Origin: Cyanobacteriota bacterium
Lineage (GTDB): Bacteria; Cyanobacteriota; Cyanobacteriia; Thermostichales; Thermostichaceae
Direction of reading: 5' to 3'
Length of the DNA stretch: 64,000 nucleotides
Assembly (NCBI GenBank): GCA_033764955.1
Contig: JANRIL010000048.1
Coordinates: 32,001 to 96,000, forward strand
The notes under the pieces are model-generated. The model had not been told where the DNA came from. It did not search any database and saw only the letters and a list, made by a program, of their open reading frames with translations. Made by a program: the position numbers and the translations under genes. Positions 7,196-50,515 of this stretch are shown in pieces. Position 1 is the stretch's first letter, and each line of letters opens with the position of its first letter.

Positions 7196-7990
7196 ATGAA
7201 CCTATTCACGAGCCTATTGGCCTCGCGCTGGCTACGAGCGGCTCTCACCTGGGTTGTGCTGGTGGGAATGATGGCTGGCTTATCCAGTTGCCGCCTCAGC
7301 CAGCAGACTGCTCCTGCTGACGGTGACCTAGAAGCACAGGTATTGCAGATCATTCGGGATAATCCTGAGGTGTTGATCGAGTCGGTGCAGACCTATCAGG
7401 AGGAGAAGCAGGAACGCCTCAAACAAGCCAGCCAAGATCTGACGACACAAATGCAGTCCAACCCCCAAGCGGTGATCGGCAGCTCTCCCGTGACGGGATC
7501 CCCGGATAAAAAGCTCGTGCTGATCGAGTTCTCCGATTTCCAGTGCCCCTACTGTGCCAGAGCCTATCAGACAGTTAAAGAGTTCATGAAAAAGCATGGG
7601 CAGGAAGTCACCCTTGTCTATAAGCATTTACCCCTAACCAATATCCATCCCCAGGCGATGTCTGCCGCTCAAGCCGCCTGGGCGGCCAACCAGCAGGGTC
7701 AGTTTTGGCCGTTTCACGATGCCCTGTTTGAGAACCAAAGCCGTCTGAGTGAGGAGTATTATCAAGAACTGGCGGGTCAGCTCGGTTTAGATCTCAACCG
7801 TTTCAATAAAGATCGCCAGAGCAAGCAGGCTCAAGCGGCTATTGAACAGGATATGCAGATGGCCGAAAATTTGGGCATTGGCGGAACCCCGTACTTCATC
7901 TTGAATGGACTTGCTTTCTCTGGAGCCCAGCCACTGCAAAACTTTGAGCAGGCTCTCGACAAAGCTAAGCAGGGATCCCCTACTCCCTAG
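7196..7990 (+). CDS. DsbA-family thioredoxin-like protein
   Basis: EFSDFQCPYC and GTP motifs; signal/lipoprotein-like N-terminus. Confidence 0.92.
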   Translation: MNLFTSLLASRWLRAALTWVVLVGMMAGLSSCRLSQQTAPADGDLEAQVLQIIRDNPEVLIESVQTYQEEKQERLKQASQDLTTQMQSNPQAVIGSSPVTGSPDKKLVLIEFSDFQCPYCARAYQTVKEFMKKHGQEVTLVYKHLPLTNIHPQAMSAAQAAWAANQQGQFWPFHDALFENQSRLSEEYYQELAGQLGLDLNRFNKDRQSKQAQAAIEQDMQMAENLGIGGTPYFILNGLAFSGAQPLQNFEQALDKAKQGSPTP

Positions 7991-38780: not shown

Positions 38781-39497
38781 ATGGCAGAAAAAAATAATCC
38801 CATTCAAAAAATTAGTTATTTTGACGAGGGGTATCGCGCCCAAAAATTTGCTCAACTGCATCAAAAAAAGGATGTTTTCTTTGTGCAGGTTGGTGGCATG
38901 GATGGCAAGCAGTTTGATCCCATTTATCCTGCTGTCCAAAGGTATGGCTGGTCCGGCTTAATTGTGGAGCCATTGCCTGATTTATACGCCCTCCTTTGTC
39001 AAACCTATCAACCCTATCCTCAAATTATTTTGGAAGCCTGCGCTATCACGGAAAGCTCAGGTTGGGTGACTATGCATCGCATTCCCTTAGCCATTGTAGA
39101 AGATGGATCCCTACCGGATTGGACAACGGGAATTGCATCGGTGCGAGAGGATGAGAATCGCTTAGGAGGTATCCGCAAAGATAGTCTTCTGTATGAGAAA
39201 ATCCAACCCTATTTGGTTCAGGAACAGGTGGTAGGGCTAACGCTTGCTGAGCTGTTGGTCAAGCATCATGTTAAACAAATGGATGTCTTACAGATTGATG
39301 CTGAGGGCATGGACTACCATATTTTGAAGCAGCTTGACTTTTCAACCTATCAACCCTATCTAATCAACCTAGAATTTGCGAATTTACCCGAGTCAGAACA
39401 ACTGGCTACCCTTGATTTATTGGAGCAGCATGGCTATCGTTATCGCTGTGAAGCAGGACATGGGTTAGATTTATTGGCCGAGCGCTTGCTAGAATAG
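38781..39497 (+). CDS. FkbM-family methyltransferase
   Basis: FVQVGGMDG, VEP, LQIDAEGMD. Confidence 0.88.
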   Translation: MAEKNNPIQKISYFDEGYRAQKFAQLHQKKDVFFVQVGGMDGKQFDPIYPAVQRYGWSGLIVEPLPDLYALLCQTYQPYPQIILEACAITESSGWVTMHRIPLAIVEDGSLPDWTTGIASVREDENRLGGIRKDSLLYEKIQPYLVQEQVVGLTLAELLVKHHVKQMDVLQIDAEGMDYHILKQLDFSTYQPYLINLEFANLPESEQLATLDLLEQHGYRYRCEAGHGLDLLAERLLE

Positions 39498-39865: not shown

Positions 39866-41080
39866 CTACTTTGTCCTAAGTTCTCTCCTAACGTCGGTAA
39901 CTCGCCAACTAAGGTGCAGATTGAGATAAAAGTTCCAAAACATGACTGTGGCAATAGCCAACAGGTTTGCCAACAAATAGTGAATACCCAACCCATCCGT
40001 TAACATAATCAGGAGTAGCGAGTTAATTCCTAAACCCAGCAAGCAGATTACGTTAAATTTCACCAACCGTTTCAGCCGATTATGGGATCCCGGTTGTTTA
40101 CGGGTAATATCTCGGAATGTCCAGAGATCATTCCACAAGAAGTTGTTGAGGATAGCACACTCTGCTGCCACCAATTTACTGGCTACTAGGCCAAATCCCC
40201 AGCCCGTCGCATCATGCAATAGGTAGAGCAAGCTCATGTCCACCAAAACCCCTGAGCAGCCCACTAATCCGAAGCGCAGAAATCGCAGGATAGGCCAAAG
40301 AGAGAGCCGTAAATAGAGAAGATGCTGGAGATAGTGCCCATAAACCTGTAAAGAAATTTTGCTTTCCCCTTCCTGTCGTTCTTGAAAGACGTAACCCACT
40401 TCGCTAATCTGGCTGATGCTGCCCCGCCCCAACACTTCAATCAATATTTTGTAGCCAAAGGGATAGAGATCTCTCCCCGCAATCGCTGTCCGCCGCACTA
40501 AAAAAAATCCACTTAAGGGATCCGTCACCCGCCCTAGGATCCCTGGCAAAAGAATCAAACCAATTAACTGTGCCCCCCGCGAAATGATCCGCCGCTCAAC
40601 ACTCCATTGACTGACCCCACCCCCTTCCACATGGCGACTGGCAACCGCCAGATCGGATCCTGCCTGCATAGCTGCCACTAGATCTAGCAAGACATGGGGA
40701 GGATGCTGCAAATCTCCATCGATGACTCCCAAAACCTGCCCCCGCGCCAGTTGCCACCCTTGTAAGACAGCAGTCGCCAGTCCCCGGTCTCCCTGACGAC
40801 GCAGTACACGCAAGGCCGGATACTCTGCTCGTAAAAATTCGGCAACTTGCCATGTTTGATCCGGGCTGTCATCATCCACCACCACCAACTCATATTGATT
40901 GGCAAGAATAGGATCTAACAACTGACTAAGCTGGGCAATCAGGGGTTTCAGATTATGCGCTTCGTTATAAGTAGGAATGACCAACGACAAGAACAAGGGA
41001 TCCCCCGTCGCCAAAGACAAAGCTGGCACCCGATAGGCGCGCATTCCCCAATTTTGCGACATCATACTCCTCACACCCAC
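39866..41080 (-). CDS. GT2 polyprenol-phosphate glycosyltransferase fused to GtrA-like domain
   Basis: VIPTYNE, VVDDDSPD, IDGDLQHPP, DPLSGFF; C-terminal RFGLVG and four TM segments; start uncertain. Confidence 0.92.
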   Translation of the reverse strand: MGVRSMMSQNWGMRAYRVPALSLATGDPLFLSLVIPTYNEAHNLKPLIAQLSQLLDPILANQYELVVVDDDSPDQTWQVAEFLRAEYPALRVLRRQGDRGLATAVLQGWQLARGQVLGVIDGDLQHPPHVLLDLVAAMQAGSDLAVASRHVEGGGVSQWSVERRIISRGAQLIGLILLPGILGRVTDPLSGFFLVRRTAIAGRDLYPFGYKILIEVLGRGSISQISEVGYVFQERQEGESKISLQVYGHYLQHLLYLRLSLWPILRFLRFGLVGCSGVLVDMSLLYLLHDATGWGFGLVASKLVAAECAILNNFLWNDLWTFRDITRKQPGSHNRLKRLVKFNVICLLGLGINSLLLIMLTDGLGIHYLLANLLAIATVMFWNFYLNLHLSWRVTDVRRELRTK

Positions 41081-41137: not shown

Positions 41138-42304
41138 TTATTTTATCGAGAATTGTCGCCATGCTGAACTGAACAAATAGGCGATAACTTGAGAACGATA
41201 CGGCAAATTCCAAATCACTCGTAAGAACTCTATCCAATCCGGTTTAGCAAAATCAGCTTGGCAAGGGTAATTGGCACAGTAGTAGTGATAAGCCACTTGA
41301 TAGTTTTTTATATTTAGGCTAAGAACCCGAATGGGTTTAGAGGGATGCATCATACCCCATAGTAAAGCCGTCTGTTGCCAGGATATTTTTATCTTTGAAA
41401 TAGAATGAACAACTAAATCATATTCTGGCTGTTGAGCAAGATATTCGGGTAAAAGGTTATGCAGAAACTTTAAGCCAACTTGCAACGATAGCAAAGTATG
41501 GGAGCAGGTTGCTATTTGGATTAACTCGTGCCAGTTAATAGATTCAGAATGAGCAAAAATCATGCAAGCATCTGCAATCCATCGTAGAGGTGGAACATCA
41601 TTCCATGCCAATCCATGTGAGATAACATGTAATAGCAAATCTATTTTATTGAGAGTTTGAATTTCCCTCCCTTGGAAGTAAGCTGTTTTTGCTCTTTGCC
41701 AAGGATCATAACCGGGAAACAGAAACCAATGTAGATCAATCTCATAACCATATTGATTATGAAATGCTATAGAACCAAACCGATATTGAATCATATCCTT
41801 AGGAGTTTCGTTTATTCGATTCATGATTTCCGGATATTTAATATGCCAGCCAGCATTTAACAAAATATTGATAGCCAGAGTAATAGAATTAGATGGAATC
41901 AAGATATCAATATCCTGCATCGGACGAAAGCAAGGGCTAGAGTAAAAACCATCTGCCACTAGGGAAAATCCCTTAAGAAACAGTATGGGTATACCTTGAT
42001 GTTCCATTACGTCAATAACTTGTTGAGCAAAATAAAATAGGAGTTGATTACTAAAAGAAGCTTTACGGCGGATGCCTCTTAATTTCTGAGTTAAATCATC
42101 CCGAATGGAACAACTTTCAAGGTTATATGATAAAAGTGGAATTAATTTCAAACTACCTGCATCAAGGTTGTCAATGCTTTCATATTGACGCCATGTTGTC
42201 CAGGCTGACCCTACTTGTTTGGGATCCCTTGATAGTGCTGCCGTCAAGAGAAGCTTCTGGCTAGAATTGGGCAGGCTGTTACCTTGATAATTTCTAGTTT
42301 TCAT
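41138..42304 (-). CDS. Nucleotidyltransferase (NTP_transf_5-like)
   Basis: FLKG...RPMQDIDILI...EIDLHW, LRWIADA. Confidence 0.88.
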   Translation of the reverse strand: MKTRNYQGNSLPNSSQKLLLTAALSRDPKQVGSAWTTWRQYESIDNLDAGSLKLIPLLSYNLESCSIRDDLTQKLRGIRRKASFSNQLLFYFAQQVIDVMEHQGIPILFLKGFSLVADGFYSSPCFRPMQDIDILIPSNSITLAINILLNAGWHIKYPEIMNRINETPKDMIQYRFGSIAFHNQYGYEIDLHWFLFPGYDPWQRAKTAYFQGREIQTLNKIDLLLHVISHGLAWNDVPPLRWIADACMIFAHSESINWHELIQIATCSHTLLSLQVGLKFLHNLLPEYLAQQPEYDLVVHSISKIKISWQQTALLWGMMHPSKPIRVLSLNIKNYQVAYHYYCANYPCQADFAKPDWIEFLRVIWNLPYRSQVIAYLFSSAWRQFSIK

Positions 42305-42992
42305 GCCAACCTCGCCGCCGATCTAAGATCTTTTTGAGGATTCCTGGAAAATATTTTGGGGCAGGATCTCGTCGGCACAAGTTATTCTGATGCACCCGCC
42401 GCAACAGAACAGTTTGAGGCAACATCATTTCAACAAGTTTTTGGTCTTGAGCACGGGCATACCAATCCATAAAAAATCCACTATCAAAATCACCTATCTT
42501 CTCAAAAGAACAACGGTTGATCAGCATTGCCCCTCGTAGATAGCCACAGACAGGTTGCTCGTTAACTTTTAGTTTAGAACGCTCCTGTTCACTTAGATCT
42601 GGGCTAATAAATTGCTGTACATGACCAAAAACCATATCAACGTCTGGATTCTTCTGCATGGCATCTATTTGTGCAGATAGCTTTCGAGGCAGCCAAATAT
42701 CATCAGCATCGATAAAAGCTAAATAATTTCCCTGAGCCAGACGGATCCCTTGTTTAAGAGCTTCGGAGGCGCTATCTTTTGACTCCCAACATCCCTGCTT
42801 AACATAGTGAACAGGTTCTCCAAATGATTGAACAATAGAAGCAGATTGATCTGTAGAAAAATCATCAACAACAATAACCTCTAAAACAGGATAATCCTGA
42901 TCAAGAATAGATTGTATAGCATCACGAATATAAAGCTCACCATTATACATGGGTATAACAACACTAACTTGGAATAGGTTGGATAAGTGCAT
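42294..42992 (-). CDS. Glycosyltransferase family 2
   Basis: VSVVIPMYN, VVDDFSTD, FIDADDIW, RRVHQNN. Confidence 0.92.
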   Translation of the reverse strand: MHLSNLFQVSVVIPMYNGELYIRDAIQSILDQDYPVLEVIVVDDFSTDQSASIVQSFGEPVHYVKQGCWESKDSASEALKQGIRLAQGNYLAFIDADDIWLPRKLSAQIDAMQKNPDVDMVFGHVQQFISPDLSEQERSKLKVNEQPVCGYLRGAMLINRCSFEKIGDFDSGFFMDWYARAQDQKLVEMMLPQTVLLRRVHQNNLCRRDPAPKYFPGILKKILDRRRGWHEN

Positions 42993-43030
42993 ATCTAAAG
43001 TTCACAACTAAGATGTGGTGAGAGGTTCAG

Positions 43031-43924
43031 TTAATTCAACCAGCTTGATAGATCAGTTTGTATCAAATCCTGAAGATGAAGAATGTCATCACGAAAATAT
43101 TCAGTAAGTTCTCCTCTCATATCCAAATCTAGGGGAGGAATGGTTTGTTTGGGTAAATAATGAGATAGGCGGAGAGGCCATTGTACATAAGGTTCAAGTT
43201 CAGGGTTAAACATTGTTCTTCCATGAATGAATACAAAAGCTTTTCTGTATAAGAGGTTACCAAAAAGAATTTGACCTAAGAGAGGAAACTTGGGGATCCA
43301 GCCCGGATTTGAGTGAGGAAACTTTATGTCAAAAGATGAGATTGATAGAAAGGAAAAGATTTTTTCAAGAATTGCAACTTGTTTTTCTTGAACGTGTGTG
43401 GTTAAATCCTCAAATAAAATGGGCAAAACTTGGTCTTTATCAAAAAGATTGTAATATCGTTTGAGGCAACTGAAGTACATGCCTCGTGCTCTATAATTAA
43501 AAGGACCCGCCTCTGAGCTATTCTTCATCGCCAAATAGAAATCTAAACCAGACTCTCTACCTAAACGAACTTCATGGTTAAAGTGAGCATAAGCCCGATC
43601 AACAGGATGACGAAGAGTAGCTAGAAGTTTCACCTGAGGGATGAGTTTATTAATGCGCTGGGGAGCGTTAGGGCAAGAAAGATATGCAGTTGTTGCTTCT
43701 CCACATAGCTGACCCTCTTTAGCCTCCTCAAAAAACTGACTATACTTTCTCACTTCTGGGGTAGACATTAGATTATGATTTTGCCAGCATGGTAAGTCTT
43801 TATTAAAAAATCGAAGCTCCTTAATTTGACTCATATAAATATCGGGATGTTGGGCAAGAAAGTGGTATAGGGATGAACTGCCTGCTTTATGTGCACCAAT
43901 AACTAACAGATTCGGCAGTTTCAT
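43031..43924 (-). CDS. PAPS-dependent sulfotransferase
   Basis: IGAHKAGSSSL..L.QHP, KELRFF, GEATTAY, LRHPVDRAY. Confidence 0.9.
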   Translation of the reverse strand: MKLPNLLVIGAHKAGSSSLYHFLAQHPDIYMSQIKELRFFNKDLPCWQNHNLMSTPEVRKYSQFFEEAKEGQLCGEATTAYLSCPNAPQRINKLIPQVKLLATLRHPVDRAYAHFNHEVRLGRESGLDFYLAMKNSSEAGPFNYRARGMYFSCLKRYYNLFDKDQVLPILFEDLTTHVQEKQVAILEKIFSFLSISSFDIKFPHSNPGWIPKFPLLGQILFGNLLYRKAFVFIHGRTMFNPELEPYVQWPLRLSHYLPKQTIPPLDLDMRGELTEYFRDDILHLQDLIQTDLSSWLN

Positions 43925-45066
43925 GGAAATCCTTCTCCGTCCAATTGCTGATAAATGCGGCTAAAAGTGCTAGCACAACGATCTAAACTGAATATTTCTA
44001 TGGAGCGGCGACGGGCTGCTAGACCCATATTTTCTGCAATTTGTGGATGCTCAAGCAGATGAATAACTGAGGATACTAACCCTTGCTGATCATCTCGCTC
44101 AATCAGTAAGCCCGTTTCATTGTCCACAACAATTTCTGGGATCCCACCATCTCGCGTGGCAACAATTGGTCTTGCCATCTGAGCTGCTTGCAGAGCCACA
44201 AGACCAAAAGGTTCATTCCAACGAGAGGGCATTAAAATTATGCTAACAGAGTTTAGCAATGCGGCTACCTTATCTTTTTCAACCCATCCTAAAAATTTAA
44301 CTTGGTTGCTAATCTCTAAAGCCTCAACAAGATCAACTAAAGCAGGCATTTCTGGTCCACCGCCTGCAATGATCAGTTGACAATCTGGAATTTTTTTTAA
44401 AATTGAGGGCATAGCTTTTATTGCTAAATCAAATCCTTTATGTGGAACAATACGACCCAAACATAATAGCTTAGGGGGACTAAAAGTAATTGTTTCGGGG
44501 ATAGCATCAGGAATATAAAGACCATTATAGACAAGTTCAGCCTTATGAGAGATTTCGGGGAAAACCGCTAAAAAATCCTTCATGAGTGATTCTGATACGG
44601 CAGTTATTCGCTGAGCTTTACTTAAAACCTTTGTAATTATGGACTCCGAGTTGATTGTAATTTCAGGGTGAAAAATTGGATTAAGTGGTGAATGAAGAGA
44701 ATAAAGAATAGGTATATCCTTGATTTTTGACATCCTTATTATTCTTTCAAAAAAGAATATACTTGGAGATTGAGTATTAACATGTAAGATATTAGGATTA
44801 AACTTAACGATGATCTCACAAATTATTGTAATTAGATCTTTCATTCTCTTGAGATCATGATCATCGAGGATTTTACGAAATGGGAAACGATGTACGGAAA
44901 GATTAGTATTGGTGCTGTCTGGAAGATCTGATTTACGAACTTTGTTGGAGGTAATAACGCAAAACTGATGCCCCTGTTGACAGAGGTAAGTGATCAGATC
45001 AGATGATAGGATCTCAACTCCTCCAATGTCTGGGAAAAATTGCTCGGACCAGTAAAGCACTTTCAT
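43921..45066 (-). CDS. Glycosyltransferase family 4
   Basis: GGVE, YNG, GRIVPHKGFD, EPFGLVALQA, GGIPEIV. Confidence 0.93.
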   Translation of the reverse strand: MKVLYWSEQFFPDIGGVEILSSDLITYLCQQGHQFCVITSNKVRKSDLPDSTNTNLSVHRFPFRKILDDHDLKRMKDLITIICEIIVKFNPNILHVNTQSPSIFFFERIIRMSKIKDIPILYSLHSPLNPIFHPEITINSESIITKVLSKAQRITAVSESLMKDFLAVFPEISHKAELVYNGLYIPDAIPETITFSPPKLLCLGRIVPHKGFDLAIKAMPSILKKIPDCQLIIAGGGPEMPALVDLVEALEISNQVKFLGWVEKDKVAALLNSVSIILMPSRWNEPFGLVALQAAQMARPIVATRDGGIPEIVVDNETGLLIERDDQQGLVSSVIHLLEHPQIAENMGLAARRRSIEIFSLDRCASTFSRIYQQLDGEGFP

Positions 45067-45068
45067 AG

Positions 45069-46154
45069 CTAACTTAATAATAAATCAAAAACACACTGGT
45101 AAACTGCTTTTAGATCCTGCCCAACCTTAAACTGATAAACAGGCAACTGCTTAACTAGCTTACCTATACTTGTGAAAGTCCAATCCCTTGATCCGGCTAA
45201 GGATGTTAGAATTCTTAAGGTGCTAGGGGCTAGGGTACGGATCCCTTGAGTCGGGCTAGCAAGTATTAGCTGACTAGAATGACTATCCACGATTTGTGGC
45301 ATCAGTATAGCTTTAATTGGTAATGAAGGCATAACTCTCTCAGGGGTATGTTGTGCAGTGAATAACACTGCTTTCTCGTGATCCCAAAAAGAGAAAGAAG
45401 GTAGCGGTTGATCCAATCTTTCAAAGAGTTTTTGACTGTTAAGAGAAAGTTTTCCTGTGTTGTATAAGCTAAAAACTCTTGGATCAGGTTCTAATGAAAC
45501 CATACAAAAATCATCACTGATATAGTTCATACCCTGATGCCAGCAAGCTAAGGCAGTGGTTGACTTACCAGCTCCACCATCTCCTACAATTAAAATACAG
45601 CTCTGTGAAGTGCCAACTGCCGCAGCGTGCAAAAAAAACAACTGTTTCCTTTCTAGCCACCAGAGCAGTATCCTAACAAGCGGTGCAGCTCTTTCATAAC
45701 TAATATCATAATTCTCAAAATCATGGATGCTTTCCATCCAAAATATGCCCTGCTGAGAGCGGAAATCTAAGATATTGATGACTTTAGGTTGAGTGCCAAT
45801 TGTTACTTTAATGTGATCTTTACAATTGTTCGCAACTTGTCCCGCACTCCAATAGTCAGCATGAGAAATTCCCAGGCTAGGTATAGCCATATTTGTTGAG
45901 TGGGCATCCCAGATAAAAATGGTCAAGGCAGGCTGACTTGACTGGGATGAGCTTTCTTGATCCGATGGTTTCCATGATAGATGGGCAAAAGCAGGTGTGA
46001 GGCAGTCAACCAATGATGAACCAATAAAGTTTAACTGAATATGGTAGCCAGCTATTAAGTAGTTTTTTACCGTTATGTCAGAAATGTCCCTGATTTTTTG
46101 AAATTGCTCAGTGACTGCCCAATATACTTTATGACTAGGGTCATATTCTGACAT
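45069..46154 (-). CDS. HPr kinase-like P-loop kinase
   Basis: FLHAAAVG, GDGGAGKSTT, YISDD; ATG 46154 lies just after the upstream stop. Confidence 0.88.
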   Translation of the reverse strand: MSEYDPSHKVYWAVTEQFQKIRDISDITVKNYLIAGYHIQLNFIGSSLVDCLTPAFAHLSWKPSDQESSSQSSQPALTIFIWDAHSTNMAIPSLGISHADYWSAGQVANNCKDHIKVTIGTQPKVINILDFRSQQGIFWMESIHDFENYDISYERAAPLVRILLWWLERKQLFFLHAAAVGTSQSCILIVGDGGAGKSTTALACWHQGMNYISDDFCMVSLEPDPRVFSLYNTGKLSLNSQKLFERLDQPLPSFSFWDHEKAVLFTAQHTPERVMPSLPIKAILMPQIVDSHSSQLILASPTQGIRTLAPSTLRILTSLAGSRDWTFTSIGKLVKQLPVYQFKVGQDLKAVYQCVFDLLLS

Positions 46155-46156
46155 AA

Positions 46157-46594
46157 TCAATTTTTGGTTACGATCGGCCACCCATCCTCGCCAACCTCAT
46201 GAATGGGATCAAGGACAAGTAGATGCTGCATGTCAGCATAGCATTCTAACTTTGGAGCCTCGTAGACGATTTTTGTAGTTTCAGTAGTGGTAAGATTAGT
46301 AGCTAGTTCATCTGAAAGGCTATCTTTCATGATAATAAGTTGATACTCGTGTAGATGATCCAAAAATGTTTTTACATCAGAAGCAAACCCAAGTGGAGGA
46401 TCCCTGAAAACCTGGGGTATTTTACTAATGAGTTCATCCAGTGATATTCCCTCTTCCAGAAATCTCCAAATTTGTGTTCCTGACTGATTCAGACTAAAAT
46501 AAAGACCTGTTTCTAGATAAACAACAATAACTTCATCTCCGAAGTCTTCATAGCTGATTGCGGTGGAATTAATGAGCACAGTTTTGACATCCAT
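46157..46594 (-). CDS. PqqD/RRE-family protein with C-terminal leader/core-like extension
   Basis: DEVIVVYLETGLYFSLNQSGTQIW...DVKTFLDHL...LI (RRE pattern), Thr-rich linker, then YEAPKL...DMQHLLVLDPIHEVGEDGWP. Confidence 0.88.
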   Translation of the reverse strand: MDVKTVLINSTAISYEDFGDEVIVVYLETGLYFSLNQSGTQIWRFLEEGISLDELISKIPQVFRDPPLGFASDVKTFLDHLHEYQLIIMKDSLSDELATNLTTTETTKIVYEAPKLECYADMQHLLVLDPIHEVGEDGWPIVTKN

Positions 46595-47137
46595 ATTTCT
46601 TGAGCTTAGTAAAAACGGAGCATCATTAATCCTTTATTAGCTTCTTGCAGGCGCTAGCGTGGTGAGCAATTTCTGAATGACTTCGCTTGCTTATGGCAAT
46701 GTATATTCAGTAAAACTCGGAAGAAGTCAATATCCTACAAACACTAATACCTCAGATGATCAATAGATGCAACCGTCTTGAACCAATAAAATTTGAACAA
46801 GGTGAATATGCAGAAGCACATCGTGCCAATAGGTGAGTTTCTTTTAATCTCGATGACACCTCTGTTCAGAATCTTGAGAGGTTCCAATAGTTCTGAAGCT
46901 CCTGGTAGACTTACGTTTAAGCTTCTTGAACAGGTAGTTGAGGATGATCAAGGGTTAGTTGGTTGGCTAGGAGAAGAATGTCGAGGGCAACCTACCCTAG
47001 TAGCTCCCCCTATAATCCCCTTCCCTGGCTAGTTTTCTGGCATTCGGTCATCAAACTAGCTGACATTCTTACCAATCTGCTCTAATCTAGCGGACAGCCC
47101 ACGTTTCACAAAACGCTAGGAACAAAGGATCGGGATT

Positions 47138-49038: not shown

Positions 49039-49120
49039 CAATTTCCCTCCACCTCGATGGATCAAGCGATACCCTGGAGGGGTAAACTTTTGTAGCTGCT
49101 GGGTGTCGAGTTTAACTGCC

Positions 49121-50515
49121 ATGAGAGAAAAACCCTTGCGAGTTGTGATCGTTCGCCACGGTGAAAGCACCTTCAATATCGAAAAACGCATCCAGGGGCG
49201 CTCCGATCAGGCGGTGCTGACGAATCACGGCCAAACCCAAGCCCAAGCGGTCGCCCAAGCTCTCGCTCCGCTGCCTATTCATCTGGCCTTCAGTAGCCCC
49301 CTGCAACGGGCGCAGCGAACCGCCCAGATCATCCTGGCGGAACGTGACGGCATCCCTTTCGTCAGCACCGATCTCTTGCGGGAGATTGATCTGACGGCCT
49401 GGGAGGGATTGACTTTTGCCGAGGTCAAGCAAAAATTTCCAGAGGATCATCAACGCTGGCGCTACCATCCCCATTTGCTGTCTCTCCACCAACGCTATCC
49501 GGTGGTCGATCTCTGGCAACAGGCTCAAGACTTTTGGACTTATCTTGGGCAGGAAATGGAGAAGATCTCGCCTAATGGGGATGAAGAGTCGGATCCGTCC
49601 CCCATGACCATTTTGGTTGTCGGACACAGTGGCATCAACCGCGCCTTGATCGGGGCAAGCACGGGCATTCATTGCCAGCACTACCACCGCTTCGGGCAGG
49701 ATAACTGTGCCCTATCAATTCTGAACTTTCCCCACGGTTTAAACCATCCCGCCCAGTTAGAGTCCCTCAACCTCACCCATCATTTAGGGGATCCCTTGCC
49801 CCAATCAAAAGGGGGATTGCGTTTGCTGTTAGTGCGCCACGGGGAGACTCAGTGGAACCGTGAACAACGCTTTCAGGGACAAAAAGATATCCCCCTCAAT
49901 GCCACCGGAGAGGAGCAGGCGCAGCAAGTCGGCGCTTTTTTGGCATCCCAGTCCATTGATCTGGCTTTTTCTAGCCCTTTGTTGCGCCCTTGGGCAACCG
50001 CTATGGCCATTTGCCAGCAACATGCTAGCCAGTTGGGATCCCCCTTAGATCTGGTGCCTTTGCCCGATTTACAAGAAATCTGTCATGGAGAGTGGGAGGG
50101 CAAACTGCAAAGGGAGATTGAAGCGGAATATCCTGGGCTACTGGAACAATGGCAGCAGGCTCCCGCGACGGTGGATATGCCCTGCGGAGAAAATCTGCAA
50201 CAGGTTTGGCAACGCGCTCAACAAGCCTGGAATACCATCTTGGAAAAGTCGGCTCAAACCCTAGCCAACCCATCAGCGGAGAGTCCCCATCTGACTACGC
50301 TGGTGGTCGCCCACGATGCCATCAACAAAGCAATTCTCTGTCAGCTTTTTGATCGTTCCCCAGAAGCGTTTTGGCTATTTAAGCAAGGGAATGGGGCCGT
50401 CACAGTGATTGACTATCCTGAAGGGGCAGAAGGGTTTCCTGTCCTGCGTTGCCTGAATATCACCAGTCATCTAACGGGGGGAGTCTTAGACAGCACCGCT
50501 GCCGGAGCCTTATAA
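49121..50515 (+). CDS. Double-domain histidine phosphatase (phosphoglycerate mutase-like; possible phosphoserine phosphatase)
   Basis: Two RHG motifs (VRHGES, VRHGET); C-terminal GGVLDSTAAGAL. Confidence 0.9.
   Translation: MREKPLRVVIVRHGESTFNIEKRIQGRSDQAVLTNHGQTQAQAVAQALAPLPIHLAFSSPLQRAQRTAQIILAERDGIPFVSTDLLREIDLTAWEGLTFAEVKQKFPEDHQRWRYHPHLLSLHQRYPVVDLWQQAQDFWTYLGQEMEKISPNGDEESDPSPMTILVVGHSGINRALIGASTGIHCQHYHRFGQDNCALSILNFPHGLNHPAQLESLNLTHHLGDPLPQSKGGLRLLLVRHGETQWNREQRFQGQKDIPLNATGEEQAQQVGAFLASQSIDLAFSSPLLRPWATAMAICQQHASQLGSPLDLVPLPDLQEICHGEWEGKLQREIEAEYPGLLEQWQQAPATVDMPCGENLQQVWQRAQQAWNTILEKSAQTLANPSAESPHLTTLVVAHDAINKAILCQLFDRSPEAFWLFKQGNGAVTVIDYPEGAEGFPVLRCLNITSHLTGGVLDSTAAGAL

Follow-up and report, generated by a model that had tools for sequence, protein, structure and literature searches.

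What does a recognition protein of the lasso-peptide type act upon when no lasso cyclase, leader peptidase or separate precursor gene accompanies it? This question is raised by six genes at positions 41138..46594 of a 64,000-nt stretch of a Cyanobacteriota bacterium genome (assembly GCA_033764955.1, contig JANRIL010000048.1, positions 32,001 to 96,000), which is referred to here as the window. In the open reading frame (ORF) listing of the window, the six ORFs are co-oriented on the minus strand, AT-rich and tightly packed. They encode a recognition element (RRE) protein for ribosomally made, post-translationally modified peptides (RiPPs), an HprK-like kinase, a family 4 glycosyltransferase (GT4), a sulfotransferase, a small family 2 glycosyltransferase (GT2) and a nucleotidyltransferase (NTase) of the NTP_transf_5 family. 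A preliminary description of the locus had offered two alternatives, namely a non-lasso RiPP class or a route in which the RRE protein serves as carrier. In the present study, the carrier alternative was favoured because the RRE protein has its own YxxPxL motif and a conserved tail, and the accompanying modification chemistry was proposed by analogy. We propose that the RRE protein is itself the acceptor, that is, a self-leadered scaffold that would be phosphorylated, phospho-glycosylated and, in this copy, sulfated, and we assign this reading a probability of about 0.5.

The RRE (PqqD-like) protein of 145 aa is encoded at 46157..46594 (minus strand, as are all features below unless stated otherwise) and matched Pfam PqqD with 52.2 bits. 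Its nearest NCBIfam model was the lasso B1 chaperone lasso_PqqD_Bac, with 36.2 bits, below the cut-off of 80. The AlphaFold2 (AF2) model of the protein, which was computed from a 74-row alignment, had a mean predicted local distance difference test score (pLDDT) of 82.8. The RRE domain proper was assigned to residues 1-91 (46322..46594) from the pLDDT profile, which exceeded 90 over residues 11-90 with an RRE-typical order of strands and helices, and from its best Foldseek match, the structure of TbiB1 in complex with its leader (5v1v_A, E 2.2e-5, TMt 0.85, 28-31% identity). In the TbiB1-TbiA structures (5v1v/5v1u; 6jx3), YxxPxL mediates the binding of the leader, which adds a strand. That leader is a peptide of its own, whereas the motif lies on the same chain here, about 20 residues behind the domain.

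Behind the RRE domain, the layout consisted of a variable linker, the motif [YF]111-x-x-P114-x-L116, a tail and a short variable end. The leader-like motif of the window protein, YEAPKL at residues 111-116 (46247..46264; consensus [YF]xxPxL), was supported by both the column counts and the AF2 model. Among the 74 members, position 111 was F in 58 and Y in 13, position 114 was P in 69, and position 116 was L in 64; residues 111-120 were modelled with a pLDDT of 94 and a strand at 116-119. According to the available parts of the respective papers, YxxPxL is the leader motif bound by lasso RREs (PMC6784204), and a motif of this type is also bound by the RREs of the LPP clusters (PMC13381572). In the model, the YxxPxL stretch is predicted to dock on the RRE domain as a strand, like leaders do. 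The preliminary description had made no mention of a leader-like motif in the C-terminal part of this protein.

The conserved tail comprises residues 119-140 (46175..46240) and reads Y-x-D-M-x-x-L-L-x-L-D-P-I-H-E-V-x-E-x-G-W-P in the 74-member alignment. A similar tail was seen first in a 10-sequence alignment and then in the 74. Residues D129, P130 and W139 were invariant (74/74), and I131, H132, V134, E136, G138 and P140 were each kept in 73/74. The related loci were retrieved by matching IH[ED]V[GDT]ExGW, so the conservation within this stretch is partly by construction; YxxPxL, DMxxLLxL, D129 and P130 fall outside the pattern. Residues 121-145 had an AF2 pLDDT of 56-59, from which a free tail is predicted, not one packed against the RRE domain. 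The window protein matched the family profile over positions 5-145. In its own genome, a single RRE-tail gene was found and nothing further matched the family profile. A word-based search with the RRE protein returned seven other proteins only, at most 39% identical and all with like ends.

A scan for the tail pattern in one-genome-per-species contigs yielded 445 stretches, 408 of which encoded an RRE-plus-tail relative, and the best 80 of these 408 all covered both parts. When 1.84 billion cluster representatives were searched with the profile, there were 26,418 matches at E<=1e-3, a number that includes ordinary PqqD proteins, 6,444 at 1e-10 and 1,451 at 1e-30; the 150 matches listed spanned the whole profile. 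The 59 phylum-labelled rows of the 74-row set represented 13 phyla, led by Cyanobacteriota (13 rows), Chloroflexota (12) and Acidobacteriota (9). In a quick tree of the RRE proteins, with 46 of 71 inner branches unresolved, the window protein formed a long branch (1.69) outside the 13 cyanobacterial rows, which is suggestive of transfer of the gene without showing it.

The gene neighbourhood was surveyed in 85 sources, consisting of the best 80 loci, four loci of relatives of the window genome and the window itself, and their 1,460 ORF products were clustered. The RRE cluster was present in 69/85 sources; the other 16, in which ORF picking or truncation had left no RRE ORF in the cluster, were dropped, and 69 operons were kept. 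The small GT2 cluster (149 members) occurred in 68/85 sources, the kinase cluster in 65/85 and the NTP_transf_5 cluster in 50/85, followed by an ATP-binding cassette (ABC) exporter in 23/85, GT4 in 21/85 and a short-chain dehydrogenase/reductase (SDR) in 13/85. The kinase gene directly followed the RRE gene in 51/69 operons. In the 36 loci with full context (>=8 kb on both sides), the kinase was found in 32, GT2 in 35, NTP_transf_5 in 28, an ABC exporter of the MsbA/HepA/PglK-like type in 14, GT4/GT1 in 15 and a sulfotransferase in 5, while a cyclase, B2 peptidase, signal peptidase I (SpI) or conserved separate precursor was found in 0/36. The survey across many phyla thus upheld both the linkage of the RRE gene to the kinase, GT2 and NTP_transf_5 and the consistent absence of cyclase and B2 genes. 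The core of the cassette is RRE-tail protein, kinase, small GT2 and NTP_transf_5, and the accessories are GT4, sulfotransferase, exporter, SDR and methyltransferases. GT4 and the sulfotransferase, both named in the preliminary description of the system, are accessory and not core, being present in 15/36 and 5/36 full-context loci. The window encodes what defines the cassette, an RRE protein of ~140-160 aa ending in [YF]xxPxL...LDPIH[ED]VxExGWP with a directly following kinase gene and, in one operon, small GT2 and NTP_transf_5 genes, and its copy is a reduced, sulfotransferase-bearing form without exporter. Each of the six window proteins had homologues of 30-45% identity in other cassettes. 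No NCBIfam cut-off was reached by the RRE-tail protein, the kinase or NTP_transf_5 of the window or of three canonical loci.

Several related loci showed individual features. In two Chloroflexota loci only (L048:6693-8966 and L050; clusters c86/c87), genes for a Wzm/Wzt-type ABC-2 polysaccharide exporter were co-oriented with the RRE gene and located directly upstream of it. A Synechococcales metagenome-assembled genome (L038) carried, within its cassette, a MazE-type antitoxin gene (L038:11595-11897) and then a 143-aa ORF without a family match between the kinase and GT2 genes. Locus L016 (G046:C24; RRE at 7506-7934) was the second, divergent cassette of one genome, with the order GT4-kinase-GT4-RRE-GT4 and a degenerate tail that kept D-P and W alone and ended W-K.

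Natural fusions were also observed. Proteins P0009, P0011 and P0014 contained two or three tandem RRE modules with one full tail, and P0012 (~780 aa) joined an RRE-tail module, two more RREs and a kinase in one chain, in which the kinase part was 31% identical to the window kinase (E 8e-39). The long forms P0012, P0013, P0015, P0018 and P0026, of about 780-850 aa, were kinase-fused and carried the full tail on one module only, and HprK-GT2 fusions occurred in 5 loci. Judged from these architectures, the RRE-tail protein, the kinase and GT2 are tied together functionally.

The genes that a lasso pathway requires were then sought in the locus, in its own genome (3.8 Mb in 48 contigs, 89.19% complete, with 11 matches to phycobilisome proteins that mark it as cyanobacterial) and in related loci. 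No Asn_synthase or Transglut_core3 gene was detected in the locus by Pfam, which bore out the earlier statement that the window lacks a cyclase and a B2 peptidase, and the genome search for lasso B2/C genes was negative as well. PF13471 (B2 peptidase) had 0 matches in the genome. PF00733 had two 22-bit matches only, which were rejected as lasso cyclases, since Pfam identified one as an MnmA-type tRNA enzyme and the other as an NAD-synthase-like PP-loop protein. The archaeal-type SpI (LppS) was not found in the locus or in related operons, and no TIGR02228 match in the genome exceeded the cut-off (best 21.2 bits vs 51.85, on other contigs). An MsbA-like exporter was absent among the genes scanned at 37.4-50.5 kb of the window, and no priming phosphoglycosyl transferase, polymerase or exporter was detected among the six genes or the scanned neighbours. 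The Pfam scan of the related loci, which covered the recurrent clusters through 39 representatives as well as all 89 singletons of >=100 aa in the operons, revealed no Asn_synthase, Transglut_core3, S24/S26 peptidase, Wzy or recurrent priming phosphoglycosyl transferase. Of the hallmarks of a lasso cluster, the locus has the B1-type RRE with YxxPxL, the binding being predicted, and no other; nor is it a conventional Wzx/Wzy- or ABC-dependent polysaccharide locus.

A separate precursor gene was likewise not detected. The upstream interval 46595-47137 (540 nt) contained only unconserved ORFs of 21-79 aa, in agreement with the earlier statement that it holds no free precursor ORF. No protein of 30-78 aa shared the tail words in a search limited to such words. 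In the small-ORF screen, 9,579 ORFs of 15-90 aa from the 69 operons and 1.5 kb on each side were clustered by blastp-short similarity, and only antisense shadows of conserved genes were obtained.

A cyclase-less RiPP family with an RRE, an HprK-like kinase and an NTP transferase is already in print as LPP (Popov et al., Nat Commun 2026, PMC13381572). The preliminary description had put forward a candidate new system; because LPP is published, the present locus is a variant of the LPP-type category and not wholly new, and it is the self-leadered form that is undescribed in the searchable literature. All statements on LPP in this text refer to the available parts of that report, in which the clusters lack a cyclase and encode an SpI-like peptidase, an MsbA-like exporter and a separate precursor. 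The precursor LppA contains the motif YxxPxVLxHQxIxFETxxS, LppB presents the leader, and Ser3 of the core is polyphosphorylated by the HprK-like kinase (PMC13381572). The LPP precursors have 35-200 aa and variable C-termini and were found by hand, and the family is described as restricted to Bacillota (PMC13381572).

The window locus resembles LPP clusters in lacking a cyclase, in being set among glycosyltransferase or polysaccharide genes and in possessing a [Y/W]xxPx[L/V] motif, and its RRE, HprK-like kinase and PF14907 NTP transferase match those of LPP at the family level. It differs in that LPP has a separate LppA, a discrete RRE and an SpI peptidase, whereas here the RRE protein itself bears the motif together with a different tail of far stronger conservation. 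In addition, the window motif shares [YF]xxPx[LV] alone with LppA and has D129 where LPP has Ser, small GT2 genes belong to the core here, and the cassette was found in 13 phyla as opposed to Bacillota. The invariant D129 is residue 18 after the motif aromatic, the same spacing as that of the LPP phospho-Ser; we regard this match as a coincidence worth testing and not as evidence. A term search of the available parts of the LPP report (PMC13381572) found no natural fusions or cyanobacterial examples. No printed description of a self-leadered RRE was found in the searchable literature, including the available parts of PMC7470986 and PMC12710340, with subscription journals and supplements outside its scope.

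Related chemistry is known from lasso tailoring. As reported in the available parts of these papers, the kinases PadeK, ThcoK and PsmK of the paeninodin and pseudomycoidin type phosphorylate a C-terminal Ser (PMC8498205, PMC6993621), PsmN is required for the addition of one or two hexoses to the phosphate (PMC6993621), and sulfotransferase genes stand beside some Firmicutes lasso clusters (PMC8498205 or PMC6993621). The B1-type RRE, HprK-like kinase and NTP_transf_5 families are common to those systems and the window, whereas their precursor, Asn-synthetase-like cyclase, B2 peptidase and C-terminal Ser have no counterpart here. A short peptide segment of high conservation presented by a PqqD-like RRE is also found in the biosynthesis of pyrroloquinoline quinone (PQQ; PqqA/PqqD) and mycofactocin (MftA/MftB, where the GT2 MftF attaches sugars). 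The core of the present cassette has no radical-SAM enzyme or peptidase and contains a kinase and a nucleotidyltransferase instead, and the resemblance is an analogy of logic only, not pathway homology.

The kinase (370 aa, 45069..46181) matched Hpr_kinase_C with 20.7 bits, which is below the cut-off (E 3.3e-4), over the P-loop region only. Its Walker A motif lies at residues 200-207 (45561-45584), and H185, G203, G205, K206, S207 and K270 were invariant in the 63 members of the family, whose profile matched solved HPr kinases around the P-loop only. Membership in an HprK_rel_A/B system was considered and rejected, as the NCBIfam scores were 37.8 and 30.1 bits vs cut-offs of 200. The NTP_transf_5 nucleotidyltransferase (388 aa, 41138..42304; PF14907, 124.8 bits), a core member, contains a D-I-D pair and DLHW in its translation, and its AF2 model had a pLDDT of 90.0 and a predicted TM-score (pTM) of 0.89. 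The best Foldseek matches of this model were the Pol-beta-type NTases MenT1, LnuA and ANT(2'')-Ia, which act on hydroxyls, and the pseudomycoidin authors reported an agreeing NTase likeness for PsmN (PMC6993621, available parts). The small soluble GT2 (232 aa, 42294..42992; Glycos_transf_2, 104.5 bits), also a core member, matched the MftF model weakly (NCBIfam, 43.3 bits vs cut-off 280). The accessory GT4 (381 aa, 43921..45066) matched Glycos_transf_1 with 135.1 bits and Glyco_transf_4 with 59.9 bits, and its closest cassette homologue was 40% identical. The accessory sulfotransferase of the 3'-phosphoadenosine-5'-phosphosulfate (PAPS) type (297 aa, 43031..43924) matched Sulfotransfer_3 with 36.2 bits and Sulfotransfer_1 with 28.9 bits, both above cut-offs. 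Its translation contains an N-terminal GAHKAGSSS loop and an RHPVDRAY stretch, which we take to be the PAPS-binding motifs, and its homologues in other cassettes (L071 and L054) were 32-34% identical. Hydropathy analysis assigned a membrane-spanning segment to none of the six proteins; a single 19-residue window above threshold was located at residues 181-199 of the kinase, just ahead of the Walker A loop.

The chemistry proposed for the acceptor reading is modelled on the homologous lasso and LPP enzymes and is set upon the observed linkage, motif, tail and absences. The RRE domain with its bound motif would form a composite surface for recognition by the kinase, which would parallel the lasso and LPP systems, and the tail would be the part delivered to the enzymes. 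The HprK-like kinase may add a phosphate to a residue of the tail or close to it. From this phosphate, NTP_transf_5 may produce a phosphodiester-linked sugar, and the glycan may then be lengthened by the soluble GT2 and GT4 and sulfated by the PAPS-type sulfotransferase. All of these steps would take place in the cytoplasm on a soluble protein.

A number of observations weigh against the RRE protein being the acceptor. No hydroxyl residue was invariant in the tail of the 74 members: position 120 was T in 49 and S in 11, yet it is Ala in the window protein, and position 137 was T in 21 and S in 14, yet it is Asp there. According to the LPP report, LppA variants S3T and S3Y were not phosphorylated and the known kinases of this type act on Ser only, and LppN displayed no activity in that study (PMC13381572). 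Conservation this strong across phyla is unlike that of most RiPP cores and would fit an enzyme-docking element equally well. The tail is internal and not C-terminal in fusions such as P0012, so it need not be a free C-terminus. Finally, the MsbA/HepA/PglK-like exporters of related loci also serve lipid-linked glycans.

The main alternative is regarded as possible on a tentative footing. Here the cis-loaded RRE protein would be an adaptor or activator, its tail would dock on and switch on the kinase and/or NTP_transf_5, and the acceptor would be another molecule, either a carrier-bound glycan, with a lipid or nucleotide as the carrier, or other proteins. In that case, the cassette would be a glycan-decorating module that has dispensed with a peptide substrate. 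The conservation of the tail resembles that of a protein-protein interface, no Ser, Thr or Tyr in it is invariant, and RRE-kinase fusions occur, which agrees with such a role, although AF2 leaves the tail free and not folded back, and the segment after a leader is the substrate in RiPP logic. By engineering, leaders have been fused to enzymes that then modify substrates lacking a leader. Glycosyltransferases always stand alongside, often together with MsbA/HepA-like exporters or neighbouring Wzm/Wzt genes, and a GT2-GtrA gene, of the type that makes polyprenyl-phosphate sugars, directly follows in the window; however, the operons share no recurrent gene for forming a carrier, such as one for a priming phosphoglycosyl transferase.

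It is unlikely that a separate precursor is encoded elsewhere or was not recognised, and that the fused motif regulates the RRE, for example through an auto-inhibition displaced by the true leader. The length range of 35-200 aa, the variable C-termini and the manual discovery of the LPP precursors speak for this possibility, as does the reach of the small-ORF screen, namely blastp-short similarity within the operon and 1.5 kb on each side. On the other hand, no sense-strand small ORF recurred in the 69 operons, no short protein shared the tail words, the genome has a single RRE-tail gene, and the ORFs upstream in the window are unconserved. A similarly improbable proposal is that the tail is a PqqA/MftA-like scaffold for a small, almost universal phospho-glycosylated, here also sulfated, molecule or glycan conjugate, with release or coupling at the invariant Asp129-Pro130 by self-cleavage; such self-cleavage would account for the lack of a peptidase travelling with the cassette.

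The view that the locus is the decayed or fragmentary remnant of a lasso or LPP cluster, whose cyclase, peptidases and precursor are gone and whose genes have ceased to act as a unit, is very improbable and was largely refuted by the neighbourhood survey: although RRE, kinase and NTP_transf_5 form the paeninodin/pseudomycoidin tailoring set, the AT-rich island has an acquired look and the exporter of 14/36 related loci is missing from this copy, the six ORFs are intact with overlapping junctions, the catalytic motifs of kinase, NTP_transf_5 and sulfotransferase are present, and the conserved linkage and consistent lack of cyclase and B2 genes across phyla, with the same cyclase-less arrangement in hundreds of species and 13 labelled phyla, indicate conservation and not decay.

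In RiPP logic, the recognition protein is one molecule and the substrate with its leader is another, whereas they are one molecule here, and commonly so. If the RRE protein is the acceptor, the cassette would prime itself and lead to a glycan that is linked through phosphate and sometimes sulfated. The acceptor reading would also mean that LPP chemistry, newly described in Bacillota, reaches groups such as cyanobacteria, Chloroflexota and Acidobacteriota, and would offer a tractable handle on NTP_transf_5 function and on the final products of LPP-type systems. If the RRE protein is an adaptor, it would provide a natural cis-fused leader that activates tailoring enzymes, an arrangement that, to our knowledge, has hitherto been known only as an engineering trick. 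Were the proposal of a scaffold with self-cleavage true, a peptidase-free, self-primed class of ribosomally templated glycoconjugate would exist in at least 13 phyla. Genome mining that presupposes a precursor or an enzyme diagnostic of the class will overlook such loci or wrongly annotate them as broken lasso clusters.

The setting of the operon was also analysed. The preliminary description had placed six packed, AT-rich, co-oriented genes between a GT2-GtrA gene and gltA, and the coordinates, families and GC content were confirmed. In the order of transcription, successive genes overlap by 25 nt, stand 2 nt apart, overlap by 4 nt, stand 38 nt apart and overlap by 11 nt, and all six ORFs are intact. 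The GC content was 0.34-0.43 across 41-47 kb vs 0.48-0.58 in the flanks. Upstream, gltA (citrate synthase, 450 bits by Pfam) lies on the other strand; the synteny upstream of gltA was not kept in 5 same-family genomes, in which gltA itself was the sole match. Across the scanned region, 14 promoter-like sites were counted vs a shuffle mean of 21.2, and 9 terminator-like sites vs a shuffle mean of 7.5, that is, at chance level. A query of sequencing runs with the operon returned none.

Downstream, the gene for a GT2-GtrA fusion (404 aa, 39866..41080; Glycos_transf_2, 107.5 bits; GtrA_DPMS_TM, 96 bits) begins 57 nt after the NTP_transf_5 gene on the same strand, with a GC content of 0.48-0.53, above the six-gene value. 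Hydropathy analysis placed several transmembrane-like segments at residues 267-382 of this protein, and the other cassettes held no close homologue of it, only generic GT2 matches. It is possibly the last gene of the operon, its membership being uncertain, and it might connect the cassette with a route to polyprenyl-phosphate sugars or simply adjoin it as an unrelated gene.

Two further genes of the window were recorded. An FkbM-family methyltransferase gene (Methyltransf_21, 54 bits) is located at 38781-39497 on the plus strand, in the same low-GC stretch, and may be part of the island. Its sole homologue in the 85 sources was 36% identical (L080:8675-9400) and lay directly upstream of the RRE gene of L080. 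At 49103-50515 on the plus strand, a 470-aa protein with two tandem His_Phos_1 domains adjoins cobalt-precorrin-6A reductase. This protein scored 232 of 350 bits, below the cut-off, for PspA-like phosphoserine phosphatase, and 212 vs 163 bits, above the cut-off, for alpha-ribazole phosphatase.

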